Part shown: piece by piece, positions 1,453 to 49,308 of the stretch
Layout: each line of letters opens with the position of its first letter
Position numbering within the stretch: position 1 is the first letter of the stretch
Assembly (NCBI GenBank): GCA_030649735.1
Contig: JAUSFL010000023.1
Coordinates: 1 to 64,000 of the forward strand
Direction of reading: 5' to 3'
Source: Candidatus Iainarchaeum sp.
GTDB lineage: Archaea > Iainarchaeota > Iainarchaeia > Iainarchaeales > UBA10191
DNA length: 64,000 nt
Notes under the pieces: model-generated
Databases searched by the model: none
Told to the model about the DNA's origin: nothing
The model's input: only the letters and a program-made list of their open reading frames with translations
Program-made: the position numbers and the translations under genes

Positions 1453-1522
1453 AAACACTAAAATTAGGACAACTAAGAATAAACAACCCAACCAAAAAAT
1501 ACTAATTAAAAAAGCACAAAAT

Positions 1523-1597
1523 AGCGCGGTAGGGCAGCCAGGAGTGCCCGTCGGGCTCATAACCCGGAGGTCGGAGGTTCAAATCCTTCCCGCGCTA
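1523..1597 (+). tRNA. Initiator tRNA-Met (CAT)
   Basis: AGCGCGG...CCGCGCT-A with A1-U72 pair and GGG-CTCATAA-CCC anticodon arm, both initiator hallmarks. Confidence 0.96.
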
Positions 1598-1736
1598 AAA
1601 AAACTATAAAAACTACTCCTAATCTTATTTAAAGTAAAAAAAAGCAATTTGAGCTAAAATAAAGCAATAAAACAACCTAGATTGTGAATTTTTAACAAAA
1701 ACCACTAATTCTATATAATAAATTAATGAGTATTAT

Positions 1737-1750
1737 AGTTAGGCACTACA
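1737..1750 (+). repeat. AGTTAGGCACTACA motif copy 1
   Basis: Exact 14-mer in the AT-rich intergenic region. Confidence 0.9.
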
Positions 1751-1919
1751 CTGTGAGCCATTATAAATTTGCAGCCAACAGCTAAAAATAGAAAAAAAAT
1801 AAACACTTAAAAAAACAACTAAAAACAACAAAAGTGAAAAAGACAAAAAAACACAAACTCAAAAAAGAAACAAAATTAAAAAAATAAAACTACAACCACT
1901 CATTGTTTTACAACTTAAT

Positions 1920-1933
1920 AGTTAGGCACTACA
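1920..1933 (+). repeat. AGTTAGGCACTACA motif copy 2
   Basis: Exact 14-mer; 16 bp identical to copy 1 (ATAGTTAGGCACTACA). Confidence 0.9.
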
Positions 1934-1984
1934 ACCACACAAAATACTAAGCCTCAAAACAACACTAATAAAACAATACTAGTA

Positions 1985-2047
1985 ATTACTATAATGACGA
2001 GTAATGAGCGTAAACTATTTAAGTAAGTACAATCATTACTATAATGA
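1985..2047 (+). promoter_or_regulatory. Putative operator: 13-bp direct repeat ATTACTATAATGA (1985, 2035); second copy lies in the palindrome TCATTA-CTA-TAATGA
   Basis: Seen directly; the copies flank a TATA-like TATTTAAG and overlap the first ATG of the wHTH gene. Confidence 0.45.
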
Positions 2048-2466
2048 GATCAAAAATGGGCTTTTTAGATAAAATTTTAAATATTTTTCGAAAAAAAGAG
2101 TTAGGCACTACAAAAATAGAAAAAACAATATATGAAATCCAAAAAGAAGAATTTGAAGAAATCCATAGTGTTTGGGATTACTTAAAATTTGTTGAAAACA
2201 CGCAGGCATTCCACCTTACTAGCGTAATTGGGTTTGAAGAATGGATTACAATGGGTGAAATAAAACGAAGAATTAAGGAATTATTTACTGTAGAATATGA
2301 GAATGAAAGAAGCCTTTACCCATACATAAAAACCCTAGTAGATTGCGGCCTTTTTGAAGTTTCAAATGTCGGTGGAAAAAGAAAATGGAGAAGAAAAGAG
2401 CTTTTGATTATTGTGAAAAAGAAAAAAAAAGAGACTGAGCAAATCAGAGAAATCAGGGAGAATTAG
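2044..2466 (+). CDS. Winged-helix DNA-binding protein with N-terminal amphipathic helix
   Basis: WITMGEIKRRIKELF...SLYPYIKTLVDCGLFEVSNVGGKRKWR resembles a wHTH with wing; MGFLDKILNIFRKK from the alternative ATG 2056. Confidence 0.7.
   Translation: MRSKMGFLDKILNIFRKKELGTTKIEKTIYEIQKEEFEEIHSVWDYLKFVENTQAFHLTSVIGFEEWITMGEIKRRIKELFTVEYENERSLYPYIKTLVDCGLFEVSNVGGKRKWRRKELLIIVKKKKKETEQIREIREN
2099..2112 (+). repeat. AGTTAGGCACTACA motif copy 3 (inside wHTH CDS, encodes ELGTT)
   Basis: Exact 14-mer. Confidence 0.9.
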
Positions 2467-2502
2467 TTAATTTACGAGCAAAAATTAATTGATTTTTAAT
2501 TT

Positions 2503-3099
2503 TCAAAGATTGCGTAATGCATTATAATTTTTGTTAAAGTTCATTAATCTTTCAGATTTGGAATAATTCTGTTTAAACCAGGGGAAAGAAATGACTTTTT
2601 GCGCTGTTTCAAGCAAAACCCGCCTGTAATTTTCGTCAATTTTTTGGTTTTGCTGGATTAAATTAAGCAAGTTTTTTATTTCCTCTTCAATCTTTTCATG
2701 GCTTTCAGAAGTTGAAAGAATGAAAGTCCTGTCAATTAATTCCTCTAAAGACTTTACAACCAAATGGTCTTCAACGTCTTTTTCATTAAGGTAATAGACT
2801 GCTTTCCAATCCCCTTTAGTTTGCCATTTATGGGTTGGGTTATTTCCTGTAAGAAAAAAATTTTTTAAATTTGAAAAAATTTCCGGGGGAATGATAACAC
2901 AATTTTTGCCTTGTTTAATATATGGTACTTTTGAAAGTATTCCATTTCTATGATATGCGTAAGTTTTGCCATTGCTTTTAGTCACTCTTTGAGTGTACCC
3001 ATAAATTGCGCGGAATAGTTTTTGATAAGTATATGTTGAATGGCTCATTGTTTCTGGAATTATGAATTTATATTGAATAAAATAGCTCTTTTCTGCCAC
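2503..3099 (-). CDS. Hypothetical protein, possible Cas2-like/ferredoxin-fold N-terminal domain
   Basis: Long ORF; GTG 3099 follows an SD-like GGGTGTG (ORF-track start 3144); pattern FIQYKF...QKLFRAIYGY...GILSKVPYIKQGKNCVIIP. Confidence 0.6.
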   Translation of the reverse strand: MAEKSYFIQYKFIIPETMSHSTYTYQKLFRAIYGYTQRVTKSNGKTYAYHRNGILSKVPYIKQGKNCVIIPPEIFSNLKNFFLTGNNPTHKWQTKGDWKAVYYLNEKDVEDHLVVKSLEELIDRTFILSTSESHEKIEEEIKNLLNLIQQNQKIDENYRRVLLETAQKVISFPWFKQNYSKSERLMNFNKNYNALRNL

Positions 3100-3229
3100 T
3101 AAAGCACACCCTTGAATTCCAGTATTATGTTTTTTATAATACAAAAGAAATTACTTATGTATAATATAAATACATAAATAAATACTTTTGCTTTTCTTTA
3201 AAAAAAATTAAAAAATGAGAAGAAATTGG

Positions 3230-3541
3230 TTATTTTCTTCTCTGATATCTATATTGTGGAGCTGGTTGTCTAGCTGGCGCTTCTTCTTCCTCAATTTCTA
3301 AGGCTTTAGAAGGGCAAGTTATTACAATATCTTTTACAGATTTTACAGTCCTATACGGAATGCTTTTTTCGCTGATTATTTTTTTGGCCTCTTGCTTGCT
3401 TCGCACTCTTAAAGGCTCTGTTGTGATAGTTTCAATTCTTCCTTTTTCAAGGTTTATTACCAAATCGAAGACTTTTCCCTTATATTCAGCATTATCTGTG
3501 TAGATATCCATTCCAAAAAGCTTTGAGATTCTTGCTGTCAT
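3230..3541 (-). CDS. PRC-barrel domain protein (CdpB2-like cell-division protein)
   Basis: SKLFGMDIYTDNAEYKGKVFDLVINLEKGRI...IPYRTVKSVKDIVI PRC-barrel signature. Confidence 0.85.
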   Translation of the reverse strand: MTARISKLFGMDIYTDNAEYKGKVFDLVINLEKGRIETITTEPLRVRSKQEAKKIISEKSIPYRTVKSVKDIVITCPSKALEIEEEEAPARQPAPQYRYQRRK

Positions 3542-3742
3542 TAAATTCACCCCATTAATATTGATATTAGGTTTTGAAAACCATTATACTGAAGTCAAGA
3601 AACTATTTAAATCTTACTAATTTTTTTCAAAACCAGTATTTTTCAATAATAGTGGAACTAAACCCACCCCAAAACTACATAATTATTGCTTTGTTTCATT
3701 AATTCTCTCTTGTCCTAATATCGTGTGCTTTTTATCCTAATT

Positions 3743-3756
3743 TGTAGTGCCTAACT
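3743..3756 (-). repeat. AGTTAGGCACTACA motif copy 4 (contains the xerA TAG stop)
   Basis: Plus strand TGTAGTGCCTAACT. Confidence 0.9.
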
Positions 3757-4725
3757 TTGCTCTTTTATCGCTTCTTTTTCAATTATTTTCTTTTTTTGCA
3801 TTGTGTCAAAAGGGCTGACTACTTTTTTCAGCTCGTCTGTTGTGACTTGGGTGTAAATTTGGGTTGTGCTTAGGTTTGAATGGCCTAGCAGTTCCTGGAT
3901 TTTTCGGATATTTTCTCCGCTTTCCAGTAAATGCGTTGCGAAGCTGTGGCGTAGTTTGTGTGGCGTGATGTCTTTTGTTATTTTTGCCTTTGCTGCTGAT
4001 TCTTTGATCATTCTTTCGATTGTGTCAGTGCTTATTGGGGTTGCGTTTTTTTTGCTGAATACAAATGCGCTTTTGTTTTTTTTCTTTTTTAAGTATTTTT
4101 TTATTTCACTAATCCATTGTTTTGAAAGGATTATTATCCTGTCTTTGTTTCCTTTCCCGCCTTTTACGCGGGCTATTCCTTCTTCTAGTTCCAGGTCTTC
4201 GGTTTTTAGCTTGCTGGCTTCTGAAACCCTGCAGCCAGTGCTGTAAAGGAATTCTAAGATTAGCCTGTTGCGTCCTGCTTTTGTTGCTTTGAAGAGGAGT
4301 TTTAATTCTTCTTTTGTCAGTGTTATTGGAAGTTTTTTGGCTTTTTTTGGGGTTTTTATTTCTTCAATTATTTTTAAGTGCAGCAGCGTGTGGTAAAAGT
4401 ATTTTAGCGCTGAGAGCGCTAGTGCTATTGTTGAATTGCTTGTTTGCCTTTTTTCTTTCATTTCTGCCATGAATGAGATTATGTCTTCTCTTTGCGCTTC
4501 TTTGGCTGGTTTTTTGAAGAATTGCAAAAACATTTCAACATATAATTCATACATGGTCAAGGTTTTTTGTGAATAGCCGGCGACTAGCAGTTCTTGCCTG
4601 AATTTTTTTACAATCGCTTGGTTTTCTTCGCTTAATTCTGGCTTTGCGGTTTTTCTTTTTTCAAATTCCGAATTTGTAGTGCCTAATTCACCAATCGTAG
4701 TGCCTAACTCTTCTATTGTCCCCAT
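3751..4725 (-). CDS. xerA: XerA-like tyrosine recombinase
   Basis: SAM-like N-domain; catalytic R (TGCRVSE), K (GKGNKDR), HKLRHSFATHLL, LLGHS, TTQIYT. Confidence 0.9.
   Translation of the reverse strand: MGTIEELGTTIGELGTTNSEFEKRKTAKPELSEENQAIVKKFRQELLVAGYSQKTLTMYELYVEMFLQFFKKPAKEAQREDIISFMAEMKEKRQTSNSTIALALSALKYFYHTLLHLKIIEEIKTPKKAKKLPITLTKEELKLLFKATKAGRNRLILEFLYSTGCRVSEASKLKTEDLELEEGIARVKGGKGNKDRIIILSKQWISEIKKYLKKKKNKSAFVFSKKNATPISTDTIERMIKESAAKAKITKDITPHKLRHSFATHLLESGENIRKIQELLGHSNLSTTQIYTQVTTDELKKVVSPFDTMQKKKIIEKEAIKEQS
4675..4709 (-). repeat. Motif copies 5 and 6 (AATTAGGCACTACA 4675-4688; AGTTAGGCACTACG 4696-4709)
   Basis: One mismatch each, 21 bp apart; encode ELGTT twice in the XerA N-terminus. 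Confidence 0.9.
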
Positions 4726-37924: not shown

Positions 37925-38923
37925 ATGAAACAAGTCAAGGCTTCAGCTCCGGGAAATCTGTTCTTTGCAGGAGAGCACGCAGTGGTTTACAATTATCCAG
38001 CAATTGTCACTTCCATTGGAAAGCGGACTTTTGTCACAGCTTCTTCAAGAGAAGATATTATAGTTGAAATTGAGAGTAGTGCTTTTGGAATTGCGACAGC
38101 AAAAAACCGCAATGGCCAGTTGATTGAGCGCTCCATGGAAAAGAAAGAATTGAATTCTGTAATGGATTTGTGCGAGAAAGTAATTCAAGACTTCAAGATT
38201 TCTGACGGCTTTTCCTTAAAGATTGAGTCCGAAATTCCAGTAGAGTCTGGAATGTCTTCAAGCACTGCTGTTTTGTGCGCTAGTTTTTGCGCAATCACTG
38301 AATTGTTCGGTCAGCACGTAAAGCCTGAAAAGTATTTTGATTCTTTGTATCCTTTGCAGGTGAAAATTCACGGTGGAAAGGCTTCAGGCGCGGAAATTTA
38401 CTCTTCTTCAGTTGGTGGATTCAACAGGATTCAAAAAGTTGAAGAGAACGGAAAAGTCGTGCAGAAAGTAAAGTCTTTGGGAAAGCAAGAGTTTTCAGTG
38501 GTTATTGGGAACACTAAAGTGCGCGGCCCAACAGCACTTGTTGTTGGAGTTCATCACCCAAGTATAATTAAGAGATTTCCAGAATTAGTTCGGGATTCTT
38601 GGAAAAAAATTGAAAAAATCGTGAAGTCAATGCAGTCAGCAATAAAAAAAGGGGATGTGGTAAAAGTTGGAAAGTTAATGACTGCAAACCAGAAAGTTCT
38701 TTCCAAAATTATGCTTTCTCACCCAAAATTGGACGATTGCATTACTGAAGCCTTGAAGGCCGGTGCTTTAGGAGCAAAGCTTTCTGGCGGAGGCTGGGGC
38801 GGAGTAATGTTTGCCTTAGTGCGCAAGGAAGACGAGGATAAAGTTGCAAAGGCAATTGAAAGCACTGGAAGCGAGGCAATAATTACCGAAATTGGCGGAG
38901 AAGGAGTCAGAGTTGAGGAATAA
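37925..38923 (+). CDS. mvk: Mevalonate kinase (GHMP family, atypical motifs)
   Basis: SAPGNLFFAGEHAVVY, IPVESGMSSS, GAKLSGGGWGG; operon context. Confidence 0.85.
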   Translation: MKQVKASAPGNLFFAGEHAVVYNYPAIVTSIGKRTFVTASSREDIIVEIESSAFGIATAKNRNGQLIERSMEKKELNSVMDLCEKVIQDFKISDGFSLKIESEIPVESGMSSSTAVLCASFCAITELFGQHVKPEKYFDSLYPLQVKIHGGKASGAEIYSSSVGGFNRIQKVEENGKVVQKVKSLGKQEFSVVIGNTKVRGPTALVVGVHHPSIIKRFPELVRDSWKKIEKIVKSMQSAIKKGDVVKVGKLMTANQKVLSKIMLSHPKLDDCITEALKAGALGAKLSGGGWGGVMFALVRKEDEDKVAKAIESTGSEAIITEIGGEGVRVEE

Positions 38924-43171: not shown

Positions 43172-43975
43172 TTTCTTGAATGCTTTTTCAATTTCGGCAA
43201 TTAACTTAGTTATTGGCTGGGAATTCTCGAATATTTGGTCATAAATTTCTGAAAAATCCTTTAATCCTTTAATGCAAATCCAACAGCTTGAATGCATATT
43301 GGATGGAAGAGTAAATCCAAGCATTAATTCTTTTTCTGTTATTGCCATTGAATTAATGCTTCTTAAGGGGGCATATCTCAATTCCATGTTTTCTAATTTG
43401 GAGAGTTTTTTCAGGTTTTCAAATGCTTGCTTGTCCTTTTTTTCTATTATTGTGGATTTTGTCAAATCCCCAGCAATCAAGTATTTGACAAAAATTTCGT
43501 TTTTTTCTATTTTAGCTATCAAAGCATCCAAATATTTGCCCATATCCGGTTCAAAATAACGTTCACTCTCAAAAATAAGCCCCGGAGTTTTCGAGCTAAG
43601 CTTTATGTTTTTTGCTTTGCTTATAATTTTACAAAGATGATTCCAACTTTCCTTTCGATTAAAGAATATTTTTGCATTGACCCAGTCTTTGCATTCTTTT
43701 CCTGACTCGTAATTTTCTAAAACTCTTCTAGTAAAGGCATTTATTTCTTTGAGCCAAATTGGGTTTAAACTATATTCTCTTTCCTTTTTTGTGATTATGC
43801 CGTCATCCAAAAGCACAGTTAAACACTTGTGAATGGCTTGATATGACAGATTTCTTCCAAGATTCCTTTGAACTTTATGGTAAACTTCTTTTGCATTCAA
43901 AGGCCATTCTTCAGAAAGAACCGCAATTATGTTTTTACTAACTGATTCTTTTTGCATCAAGAAACTTAAAACCAT
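43163..43975 (-). CDS. Winged-helix transcriptional regulator with TrmB-like effector domain
   Basis: WPLNAKEVY...LSYQAIHKCLTVLLDDGII...YSLN; C-terminus resembles the TrmB sensor fold; AT-rich. Confidence 0.75.
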   Translation of the reverse strand: MVLSFLMQKESVSKNIIAVLSEEWPLNAKEVYHKVQRNLGRNLSYQAIHKCLTVLLDDGIITKKEREYSLNPIWLKEINAFTRRVLENYESGKECKDWVNAKIFFNRKESWNHLCKIISKAKNIKLSSKTPGLIFESERYFEPDMGKYLDALIAKIEKNEIFVKYLIAGDLTKSTIIEKKDKQAFENLKKLSKLENMELRYAPLRSINSMAITEKELMLGFTLPSNMHSSCWICIKGLKDFSEIYDQIFENSQPITKLIAEIEKAFKKSK

Positions 43976-44081: not shown

Positions 44082-44145
44082 CTTTAAAACCTCTAAAAAG
44101 GTTTTAAAGTTTCAAAAACAAGCCAAATTTTTGAAACCTTTAAAA
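44082..44145. promoter_or_regulatory. Nested inverted repeats (putative operator) between the regulator and fni
   Basis: CTTTAAAACCT-N6-AGGTTTTAAAG (44082-44109) and GTTTCAAAAA-N9-TTTTTGAAAC (44109-44137). Confidence 0.55.
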
Positions 44146-44168: not shown

Positions 44169-45224
44169 ATGGCTTTAAAAAAGAAGGAAATCCAGACTGT
44201 TTCTCGAAAGAGAGAGCACATTGACATTTCGTTAAAGCATGACGTGCAGTTCAAGAAAAAGACCACTGGCTTTGAGGATGTAGAGCTGGAGTACTTGGCT
44301 TTGCCTGAATTGGATTTTAAGGAAATTGACACTTCAACAAAGTTTTTGGGCTTTAATTTTTCATTCCCACTGTTTGCCAGTTCTATCACTGGCGGCCATG
44401 CTGATGTTAAGAAAATCAACGAGGAAATAGCAAAGGCCTGCAGCAATGCAGGAATTGGAATGGCTTTGGGAAGCATTCGAGCAATGCTAGAGGACAAGAA
44501 AGTTGCAGATTCTTACAAAGTCCGAAAGTTTTTGCCTAAAGGATTCTTGGCGGGAAATTTAGGAGTTTCCCAATTGAAGGATTATTCTGCACAGCAGATT
44601 GGAAAAGCGCTTGATGAATTGCAGGCTGACGCGTTGTTCATTCATTTGAACGCTGCCCAAGAGGCATTGCAAAAGGATGGAACTCCAAACTTCAAGAACT
44701 GCATCAAGCAATTATATGATTTTTGCGAGGCTTTTGAAAAGCCGGTTATTTTGAAGGAAGTGGGTAATGGAATTTCCGGAACCACTGCCGAAATGCTAAA
44801 GGACGTTGAGTTTGAGGCTTTGGATGTTGCGGGCGCTGGCGGGACTTCCTGGACTGCAATTGATTCTTTAAGGGGCAATAAGGAAATTGCGGAAACTTTT
44901 TGGGATTTTGGAACCCCGACTGCAGTGAGCTTGATTCAGGCAAGAATGGTTTTTGATTCCACTCCAATAATCGCTTCTGGAGGAATCCGCTCCGGGCTTG
45001 ACGTTGCAAAAGCAATCACTTTAGGCGCTGACTTGGCTGGAACTGCAATGCCTGTACTGCATGCGCAGCACAAGGGTGGAGTGAAGGGAATTGAAGAATT
45101 GTTCTCAAAAATGCAGAAAGAATTCAGGATTGGAATGTTTTTGACTGGCGCAAAAAAGCCCGAGGAATTAAAGGGCAGAAAGTATTACTTGTTTGGAAAA
45201 ACCGCGGAATGGGTCGAGCAATAA
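44169..45224 (+). CDS. fni: Type 2 isopentenyl-diphosphate isomerase
   Basis: RKREHI, SITGG, HLNAAQE, KEVGNG, GAGGTSW, ASGGIRSG. Confidence 0.95.
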   Translation: MALKKKEIQTVSRKREHIDISLKHDVQFKKKTTGFEDVELEYLALPELDFKEIDTSTKFLGFNFSFPLFASSITGGHADVKKINEEIAKACSNAGIGMALGSIRAMLEDKKVADSYKVRKFLPKGFLAGNLGVSQLKDYSAQQIGKALDELQADALFIHLNAAQEALQKDGTPNFKNCIKQLYDFCEAFEKPVILKEVGNGISGTTAEMLKDVEFEALDVAGAGGTSWTAIDSLRGNKEIAETFWDFGTPTAVSLIQARMVFDSTPIIASGGIRSGLDVAKAITLGADLAGTAMPVLHAQHKGGVKGIEELFSKMQKEFRIGMFLTGAKKPEELKGRKYYLFGKTAEWVEQ

Positions 45225-45689
45225 ATGCCTGCCAGAAAGCCGGCAAAGCCTGGAAGAAAAGAATTGATAAAGCAGATTAGAATGTTTGGCAGCGACGGCT
45301 ACACTCCTGCTGGTTTAAGGGCTGAAAGCGCAAGTTTTAGGCAATCTGAGAGTCTTTTCAAGAGAACAGATTATCGCCCAGAGTATGCGGAGAATTCCAG
45401 AAGAGCTGCGATTGCCTCAAGGTTTGCTGCAATGCAAAAGTCAGGGGCTTTGGAACGAATTAAATTAAGGGCTGCTGCCGGAAGAAAAAGCAAGGCTTCA
45501 AGAAAAATGGTAGTTGCAAATATTAAAAGTTTGAGGAAGAAAAGTTATTCTCCGGAAGAATTAAGGGCTGCAAGCAGGCAGCTTAGCGCAAGAGGCCATA
45601 AGGAACTGGCTTTGGCCACTCGTTTTTCAGCAATGGAAAAGTCCGGCTCTTTGAAGAGATTGAAAAAAAACTCTAAAGCAAGGCGCTAA
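45225..45689 (+). CDS. Basic orphan protein with internal duplication
   Basis: MPARK start; two YxPxxLRAxS...A(I/L)AxRFxAMxKSGxLxR(I/L)K units. Confidence 0.65.
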   Translation: MPARKPAKPGRKELIKQIRMFGSDGYTPAGLRAESASFRQSESLFKRTDYRPEYAENSRRAAIASRFAAMQKSGALERIKLRAAAGRKSKASRKMVVANIKSLRKKSYSPEELRAASRQLSARGHKELALATRFSAMEKSGSLKRLKKNSKARR

Positions 45690-49294: not shown

Positions 49295-49308
49295 AGTTAG
49301 GCACTACA
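49295..49308 (+). repeat. AGTTAGGCACTACA motif copy 7 (distal)
   Basis: Exact 14-mer immediately after the gltX stop. Confidence 0.85.

Follow-up and report, generated by a model that had tools for sequence, protein, structure and literature searches.

The first 64,000 nucleotides of contig C49 of genome G000, a draft assembly of Candidatus Iainarchaeum sp. (1.28 Mb in 51 contigs), raise the question of what a 14-nucleotide (nt) word, AGTTAGGCACTACA, is doing in several copies around the tyrosine recombinase gene xerA and a small winged-helix gene, with one group of copies on the plus strand and another on the minus strand facing each other. A sequence-only reading of this stretch, hereafter called the window, took the copies for polar protein-binding sites serving a local chromosome function, in the manner of origin iterons, Ter, KOPS (FtsK-orienting polar sequences) or parS. 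The word proves instead to be a dispersed repeat specific to one archaeal family, low in copy number and patchy elsewhere in the order; insertions and deletions (indels) between relatives start at its copies, directly 3′ of them, and commonly end in another copy; and it is conserved as DNA, synonymous positions included, and can be written in place where the peptide LGTT is tolerated. The explanation that we favor, to which we give an even chance of being right, is a short interspersed repeat that is at once a protein recognition site and an insertion hot spot. What was supposed to be an origin, terminus or partition signal becomes, with these results, a lineage-specific interspersed repeat with unusual habits. 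The copies in the window are the following.

1737 to 1750, plus strand: exact copy of AGTTAGGCACTACA, intergenic, 139 nt past tRNA-Met
1920 to 1933, plus strand: exact copy of AGTTAGGCACTACA, intergenic, 110 nt upstream of the open reading frame (ORF) 2044-2466
2099 to 2112, plus strand: exact copy of AGTTAGGCACTACA inside ORF 2044-2466, read ELGTT, codons 19-23, in the variable N-terminal tail
3704 to 3762, minus strand: mini-array at the 3′ end of xerA, made of an exact copy (3743-3756) and two decayed TTAGGAYAA units (3732, 3710)
4675 to 4709, minus strand: two one-mismatch copies 21 nt apart, 4675 being AATTAGGCACTACA and 4696 being AGTTAGGCACTACG
49295 to 49308, plus strand: the seventh copy, exact, directly past the end of an ORF of 572 amino acids (aa) and 123 nt upstream of an L7Ae-like gene

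The six positions given by the sequence-only reading are borne out, four as exact copies and two with one mismatch each, and its spacings of 183, 179 and 21 bp follow from them; the seventh copy had escaped it. It was also right that the word is not palindromic and that so many copies exceed chance, seven matches with up to two mismatches standing against 0.12 expected and none of 100 shuffles reaching seven. Degenerate ATTAGGA(C/T)AA variants do occur at 1463 (plus), 3710 (minus) and 3732 (minus), as had been noted, but such variants are not enriched, with 11 in the genome compared to 15 for the reversed control. Those at 3710 and 3732, which lie 22 and 11 nt from their neighbors, look like decayed members of a small array that ends xerA, where the AGT-TAG of copy 3743-3756 makes up the last codon and the stop codon of the gene; the contig of a relative (run X2) joins 3703 to 3763, skipping exactly these 59 nt (3704-3762). 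Copies 4696 and 4675 together read ELGTT-IG-ELGTT within a lineage-specific N-terminal extension of XerA. Neither the copies in xerA nor the first ~20 XerA residues have a counterpart in the orthologs of the sister species G001, the same-family genomes G002 and G003, or G007, which belongs to another family. Copy 1920, on the other hand, has a base-for-base counterpart in G001 (L009 3466), and copy 2099 is kept there as well (L009 3647), its place being taken by unrelated residues in orthologs of other families.

The sequence-only reading had presumed local clustering, and what the genome scan finds is scatter: 37 copies with at most one mismatch lie on 11 contigs of G000, 30 of them outside the window. 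They share a conserved core, TTAGGCACTAC, usually with AG before and A after it, and the 11-mer core taken alone gives 73 sites in G000 at up to one mismatch. Flanks are uninformative except for this purine-rich AG and a weak T-run after the word. By the one-mismatch count, G001 has 39 copies, G002 11, G003 9 and G007 four, and the other 36 of the 41 related genomes have none or one. Across 196 genomes of the order, the exact 13-mer is found in 6-27 copies in all four family genomes and in 1-5 copies in 15 others, compared to a single match in total for the reversed 13-mer. Within the family, six of 35 copies in G001 line up with a G000 copy at every base, the surrounding DNA being 68-79% identical. 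Viral contigs held no arrays of the motif, and the literature returned the 11-mer core only as a primer-like string in an unrelated paper, while searches by keyword on dispersed repeats in DPANN or other archaea yielded nothing relevant.

Comparison of relatives at the places where copies stand reveals the second property of the word, namely that it marks the point at which extra DNA appears. The Dph2 protein of G001 carries 46 extra residues directly after ELGTT, with two more copies inside them, and its pyridoxal phosphate (PLP) decarboxylase an extra 45-nt unit with a second ELGTT at its end, while in G000 the RlmI-like methyltransferase has 37 extra residues directly after KLGTT. The same can be seen between genes at one orthologous locus, where G003 has a single copy and G002 a copy, ~83 nt and another copy, with flanks that align on both sides. 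The G001 Dph2 composite recurs at two other, unrelated loci of that genome (all three share 43 identical nt, and two of them match at 95% over 62 nt), and the G001 arrays at C115, C81 and C56, with four, four and three copies, are missing from the orthologous G000 loci even when three mismatches are allowed. Among the 23 neighbor spacings of up to 100 nt, six measure 21-23 nt and ten 40-45 nt, the array periods being 21-23 and 44-45 bp, and in the longer unit the copy that follows is preceded, at a distance of 18-19 nt, by a second box, GCGGAGCA. Boxes of this type stand no more than 70 nt upstream of the word at 9 of 45 sites in G000 and 21 of 35 in G001, never inverted there. Array units carry no inverse copy, and inserted units vary in both length and sequence. 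Finally, gene-sized stretches are found between direct copies as well: xerA itself (4675 to 3743), two winged helix-turn-helix (wHTH) paralogs on C23, and ORFs after gatE on C44. At gatE, a piece of ~80 nt around the copy is duplicated 2.1 kb downstream (C44:43036-43110 and 45176-45260; 50 nt at 88%), and the duplicates (L058 2036-2110 and 4176-4260) bracket the gatE 3′ end, a 220-aa ORF and two membrane-protein genes. As an 8-mer in its own right, GCGGAGCA occurs 59 times in G000, against six for each of two control words, often with TT before it and only in part near the 14-mer.

The third property concerns the genes. Sixteen of the 37 G000 copies are intergenic, 12 lie within ORFs and read xLGTT, or more precisely (E/K)LGTT, five provide a stop codon through the TAG of the word, one falls in another sense phase and three are antisense, such that 21 copies overlap ORFs, 18 of them in sense. 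Genes with copies, the names of which were assigned by reading translations, include those for Dph2 (twice), PLP decarboxylase, the RlmI-like methyltransferase, RNase HII, GatE and an Ogg-type glycosylase. As to the intergenic copies, five point against both neighbors, five point with them, four sit between divergent and two between convergent genes; in four cases the copy ends 32-49 nt ahead of a start codon (C16 2938, C23 14763, C23 22600 and C44 22736), and many are followed by TTTTT(A/G)AA. In a Dph2 alignment from 23 genomes, site 2 reads TTA GGC ACT ACA in G000, G001 and G003, whereas the twenty other orthologs, including that of G002, a congener of G003, have L-[CAGVST]-x-x in other codons; at site 1, G000 has ELGTT where the others mostly show (K)TGA(K)-like residues, with no gap. 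It is therefore the DNA word and not the peptide that is conserved, and residues of a conserved enzyme have changed to fit it.

Such in-place writing brings to mind a genome-wide drive of the kind associated with the DNA uptake sequences of Neisseriaceae and Pasteurellaceae, in which uptake or repair would prefer the word and let it accumulate by point changes wherever LGTT is tolerated. Like those sequences, the word is lineage-specific, is kept at orthologous places, was created without indels in Dph2 with amino acids changed to fit, and shows a strong frame preference in genes (12 copies in the LGTT phase versus one in another open sense phase and three antisense), and the weak T-rich tract after it would agree with this too. 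Nevertheless, its density of about one copy per 17-35 kb is tens of times below that of known uptake sequences, to which tandem arrays and insertions beside copies are moreover foreign, and we consider a drive of this kind very unlikely.

How could a recognition site become an insertion hot spot? According to the explanation we favor, a sequence-specific protein would nick or recombine at the word, or stall replication there, and short word-bearing units would then be copied in next to the resident copy, either by site-specific recombination or by template switching between copies. In this way a solitary copy could grow to a pair and then to an array of 21-23 bp and 44-45 bp units, and gene-sized segments could become flanked by direct copies. 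Several points weigh against this explanation. The right-hand junction of the Dph2 insertion has no copy, and no terminal inverted repeats or target duplications were found besides the word itself. In-place writing over 12 nt without an indel is unexplained by insertion and fits selection or a drive for the word, and the copies 32-49 nt before starts, ahead of a T-rich TATA-like stretch, resemble an operator. No enzyme stands out either: among G000-G003 and G007, the Y1 transposase (PF01797) has no match in G000, G001, G003 and G007 and only a 58-aa fragment in G002, IS110 (PF01548) is found in none of the five genomes, nor is a serine recombinase, and TnpB is confined to G000, with two genes on C44, so that none of these families shows a pattern following the motif. 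Finally, the relatives are all draft metagenome genomes, and the sequencing-run data were available as assembled Logan contigs rather than raw reads, which cannot show starts, ends or rare junctions.

A bolder version of the same idea, which we take to be unlikely though worth stating, would be an undescribed archaeal insertion system, in which the 14-mer is a recombination or priming site and units or genes are copied in after a resident copy, or else an uptake- or repair-like drive acting genome-wide. Such an insertion system would work without hairpin sites and without a dedicated neighboring integrase, the word serving as a portable “landing pad plus promoter”, and units and whole genes ending in the word would enter even in frame inside essential genes. 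If true, either of the two would be sequence-directed genome editing of a new kind, at work in small symbiotic archaea.

To return to the function that was originally proposed, namely that the copies are polar sites of a local chromosome function such as origin iterons, Ter, KOPS-like or parS-like sites, the neighborhood of the copies has to be considered, which contains the following genes.

276 to 875: aTrm56
889 to 1452: TFE
1522 to 1598, plus strand: tRNA-Met; across the order, the interval from here to the winged-helix gene holds direct-repeat arrays
2044 to 2466, plus strand: 140-aa winged-helix ORF, a core gene of the order (37 of 41 genomes)
2503 to 3144, minus strand: 213-aa ORF, convergent partner of the 140-aa ORF
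3230 to 3550, minus strand: PRC-barrel gene
3751 to 4725, minus strand: xerA, the single-copy chromosomal tyrosine recombinase

There is some resemblance to such a site. The word forms direct repeats at 21 bp in an AT-rich stretch (31-36% GC), and its iteron-like form, that is, direct-repeat clusters at a spacing of about two helical turns (21 bp in xerA, 21-23 bp in the G001 arrays), had been recognized correctly. The tRNA-Met to winged-helix interval has two to six direct ACT[CT]ACTTTT-type repeats ~50 nt apart in at least six other families; these are local to the interval (L034 1170-1345 in G030, L047 210-470 in G022) and also stand upstream of the winged-helix gene in G014, G016, G021 and G035. 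The convergent pair of 140-aa and 213-aa ORFs, kept in 37 and 36 of 41 genomes respectively, is found 47-140 kb from orc1 in six genomes, and bacterial parS sites are likewise origin-proximal. The closed genome G005, however, in which both the strand bias of the genes and the GC skew change over near 340-360 kb and again near 800-820 kb, has its cumulative skew minimum next to orc1 (817.6 kb), and the orthologous locus at 770 kb is 47 kb away, meaning that the locus is origin-proximal and not the origin. In G000, Orc1/Cdc6 is encoded at C49:103885, 102 kb from the window cluster, and GC skew is positive throughout window positions 1-12 kb.

Nor does the word show replication polarity. At 16 of 31 sites it is oriented in keeping with the sign of the local GC skew, and at 15 of 27 in keeping with the strand of the genes in the region, which contradicts the strand polarity inherent in the earlier proposal; all seven copies on C23 are on the plus strand, in a region of negative skew and with four of them between minus-strand genes, and C44 has mixed orientations, five on plus and three on minus. 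Mixed orientations on single contigs argue against a Ter/Tus fork barrier, and the lack of a strand bias following replication direction against a KOPS- or Chi-like polar word; a parS centromere does not fit a word that is not palindromic and is dispersed in 37 copies, nor do origin iterons or origin recognition boxes fit copies that are not confined to an origin next to the initiator gene or at a skew switch but occur inside coding regions and on 11 contigs. The two groups in the window do point inward, as described, but the layout is incidental, because the convergent picture is produced by two unrelated clusters, one upstream of and inside the plus-strand gene 2044-2466 and the other inside the minus-strand gene xerA, where reading-frame limits force the sense orientation (only sense keeps the frame open). 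What the sequence-only reading had itself named as refuting it, a motif strewn over the genome with no polarity, is largely what is found. With 30 of the 37 copies elsewhere and the xerA-side copies specific to this species, a local polar function is extremely unlikely, and of the earlier proposal it is the protein recognition that survives as the natural reading, whereas the local polar role finds no support.

A different view of the word is offered by family f11, where an exact copy forms the start of a conserved element, ~120 nt long, with GAATTAA and a T-run at its end (L143 860-1015 on the minus strand, L141 659-815, L142 1452-1608, and further members in L147, L149, L150, L155 and L156). 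At 7 of 13 f11 sites, a TATAAAAT-like (TATA) box lies exactly 13 nt upstream of the word, and in G149, G169 and G170 a small variable gene just upstream is preceded by another copy, likewise with this promoter-like flank. The element is present in 7 of 38 f11 genomes, in one or two copies each; it has no Rfam match, and RNAalifold found no pairs in an alignment of eight sequences. The element may represent a small RNA gene or else a mobile module, and its patchy occurrence in few copies suggests that the repeat goes back to an accessory, possibly mobile, ancestor. As for an ortholog in G000, the best match to the 5′ part of the element is window 1737-1777 (E 0.004), which is only partial, and a further candidate at C44 52557-52760 is unconvincing.

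Promoter-like flanks of this sort lead to the main rival explanation, which we regard as possible, if rather unlikely: the word would be the operator of a regulon, bound by a lineage-specific transcription factor near the core promoters of some tens of genes, with arrays providing cooperative binding. This would account for the four copies shortly before start codons and the TTTTT(A/G)AA that follows many copies, for the fixed distance to the f11 box, and for the letter-for-letter conservation of orthologous copies. In addition, each of the three genes for ~285-aa wHTH paralogs on C23 is preceded by a copy, which stands 34-49 nt ahead of the start or, where its orientation is opposite, 37 nt ahead. 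On the other side, 12 of the 37 copies are inside ORFs, and for at least 10 of these the ORF is a clear gene, in some cases a housekeeping gene with no promoter nearby; two species of a single genus show a rapid turnover in the number and position of copies; and the twenty exact copies of the 14-mer are unusually uniform for a set of operators. It should be stressed, though, that the insertion-site and operator readings are not exclusive.

Candidates for the regulator are the winged helix 2044-2466, a 43-aa ribbon-helix-helix (RHH) protein and the ~285-aa wHTH paralogs. The designation of the 2044 protein as wHTH in the sequence-only reading is upheld by its AlphaFold model, which is a winged helix (predicted local distance difference test, pLDDT, 89-97 over residues 41-120) and which Foldseek matches to the winged helices of Fur, MarR, RosR, F-93 and TubR (E 3e-3 to 2e-2), with no Pfam family above cut-off. 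The residues of its predicted third helix (92-100) are largely invariant in genomes of the order, including those without the word, and the protein, encoded by a core gene of the order, is thus not specific to the motif. The winged-helix gene, ORF 2503-3144 (which has no fold match) and the ~285-aa wHTH family were accordingly all rejected as motif-specific, as they occur across the order regardless of the motif. The RHH protein (DUF7557), encoded on C45, has the only perfect palindrome of the core in G000, an 11-6-11 repeat at 38436-38463, 68-95 nt upstream of its gene, and variant copies within 1 kb of the gene (C45 to ~39400; L121 1696-2661), among them a tail-to-tail pair with a 4-nt spacer between convergent genes and one read IGTTA in a TrmB-like gene. 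Its homolog in G007 is flanked by two of the four G007 copies. It was not found in G001-G003, and being linked to the motif in G000 and G007 only, it was set aside as the motif-linked gene.

Another possibility is a role at the RNA level, in which the word would serve for protein binding or base pairing in transcripts. Sense copies do dominate among those overlapping ORFs (18 versus 3 antisense), and the f11 word leads a terminator-ended element, but the sense bias within genes follows from the fact that stop codons close two thirds of the antisense frames. Between genes, five of 16 copies run counter to the genes on both sides, and a search of the whole genome for a complementary partner, with G-U pairs allowed, returned only the copies themselves and two unrelated words. 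A TATA box 13 nt upstream would, furthermore, put most of the word before the transcription start. Folding of ten array and copy regions gave z values of -2.54 to +0.94, with one of ten below -2 and no hairpin, and Rfam searches of motif-bearing DNA (115 kb at the gathering threshold, 17 kb at E of up to 1) found only tRNAs. An action in RNA is very doubtful on these grounds, and in the absence of a common RNA fold or an Rfam match a protein recognition site is the natural reading; being neither palindromic nor structured, the word is most likely recognized on duplex DNA by a sequence-specific protein.

Could that protein be XerA, with the word as one half-site? In this scheme, the 11-bp core would be a single XerA arm, and XerA would bind dispersed arms and mediate insertions. 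According to the portion of PMC11840125 available, archaeal dif consists of two 11-bp inverted arms with a 6-bp spacer, TAA(N)6-8TTA being its most conserved feature. The core has this arm length, the C45 palindrome has the 11-6-11 arrangement, three copies lie in or at xerA, and XerA is the only recombinase common to all five motif-bearing genomes tested; two other tyrosine recombinases, of ~390-430 aa, are encoded on C37 and C47. Its identity is clear (NCBIfam NF040815, 273.5 bits with a cut-off of 220, residues 41-302), and G001-G003 and G007 each have a single ortholog, 56-76% identical to it. However, the arms of the C45 palindrome end in ACA and begin with TGT, so that TAA(N)6-8TTA is missing, and 36 of the 37 copies stand alone or as direct repeats. 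G000 has a canonical dif-like site on another contig, namely the perfect palindrome TTGTCATATAA-TCACT-TTATATGACAA at C3:968-994, the right arm of which is identical to that of T. kodakarensis dif as given in the same portion of PMC11840125; this is likely the true dif of G000. Moreover, a C45-type core palindrome was not found in G001-G003 or G007, xerA orthologs are without copies, and XerA orthologs are also present in genomes without the word, those of relatives of G007, the ortholog comparison covering five genomes. The half-site proposal was rejected as a candidate, and we hold it to be very unlikely.

If the word is a protein recognition site at which DNA is inserted, as we prefer, it is useful to ask which known repeats it resembles. 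Repetitive extragenic palindromic (REP) sequences, which are mobilized by the Y1 (REP-associated tyrosine, RAYT) transposase, and bacterial interspersed mosaic elements likewise present a short word in tens of copies that is lineage-specific, stands at gene ends or between genes, forms local clusters and turns over between close relatives. The G000 core differs from them in having 11-14 nt, in being non-palindromic and without a fold, in overlapping ORFs with 21 of 37 copies, and in the lack of Y1 in G000 and G001; REPs are palindromes of 20-40 bp (PMC3733652, in the portion available). Repeat-bearing DNA that sits in frame in housekeeping genes and is translated, as in Dph2, PLP decarboxylase and the RlmI-like methyltransferase, finds a parallel in Rickettsia palindromic elements. 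Those elements are palindromic units of 100-150 bp and act as in-frame selfish insertions in protein genes, whereas the units described here are 21-45 nt or variable, share only the 14-mer and always lie directly beside a resident copy.

Integrons come to mind because units or genes lie between direct copies of a short site that often overlaps the stop codon of the preceding gene, and because a promoter plus site is followed by a variable gene and a second site. Still, attC sites consist of folded single strands in which inverted repeats pair, and the system requires IntI with its extra domain (10.1101/2022.02.06.479319, in the portion available), while there is no hairpin at the motif and the window's only recombinase scores 208.8 bits against the integron integrase model TIGR02249, below the cut-off of 265. 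Miniature inverted-repeat transposable elements differ by their terminal inverted repeats and target-site duplication, neither of which is present here, most copies sharing only the 14-mer, and IS110/bridge-RNA or IS200/605 targets would call for a cognate transposase following the motif-bearing genomes, which was not found.

The unusual habits of this repeat are those of an exact non-palindromic 14-mer that is carried in housekeeping genes as LGTT, is preserved to the letter at orthologous sites and marks the point of extra DNA between sister genomes. Archaea with such small genomes have been met in metagenomes alone, and how their genomes change is little understood; a site-directed insertion process or a strong sequence drive, if true, would be one mechanism of such change. 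There are practical sides to this as well. Many motif arrays in G001 lie within a few hundred bases of contig ends (C56, C65, C74, C81 and C87), suggesting that the repeat breaks short-read assemblies, and in-frame peptides added to conserved proteins matter for annotation and phylogeny.

Some further observations were made along the way. The two TnpB-like genes on C44, at ~17.7-18.9 kb (plus) and ~48.2-49.3 kb (minus), match Cas12f1-like_TNB (E 6e-23 and 4e-24), and each adjoins a motif-bearing housekeeping gene, RNase HII in one case and the Ogg-type glycosylase in the other; no TnpA was found. A palindrome, GTAATTAC, occurs two or three times in the winged-helix promoter (window 1980-2043) and recurs across families at the orthologous promoter sites (L009 3520-3590, L034 1410-1470 and L047 535-560), and it is likely the operator of the winged-helix gene 2044-2466. 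The ~285-aa wHTH paralog family, which forms tandem gene arrays in many genomes of the order, has a member in the window at 43706-43972 on the minus strand, and at a distance of ~110 nt from it there is a perfect 11-6-11 palindrome, CTTTAAAACCT-CTAAAA-AGGTTTTAAAG (44082-44109). The tRNA-Met of G001 (L009 3007-3102), finally, contains an intron-like insert, such that it measures 96 nt compared to 77 nt in G000, which is without the insert.

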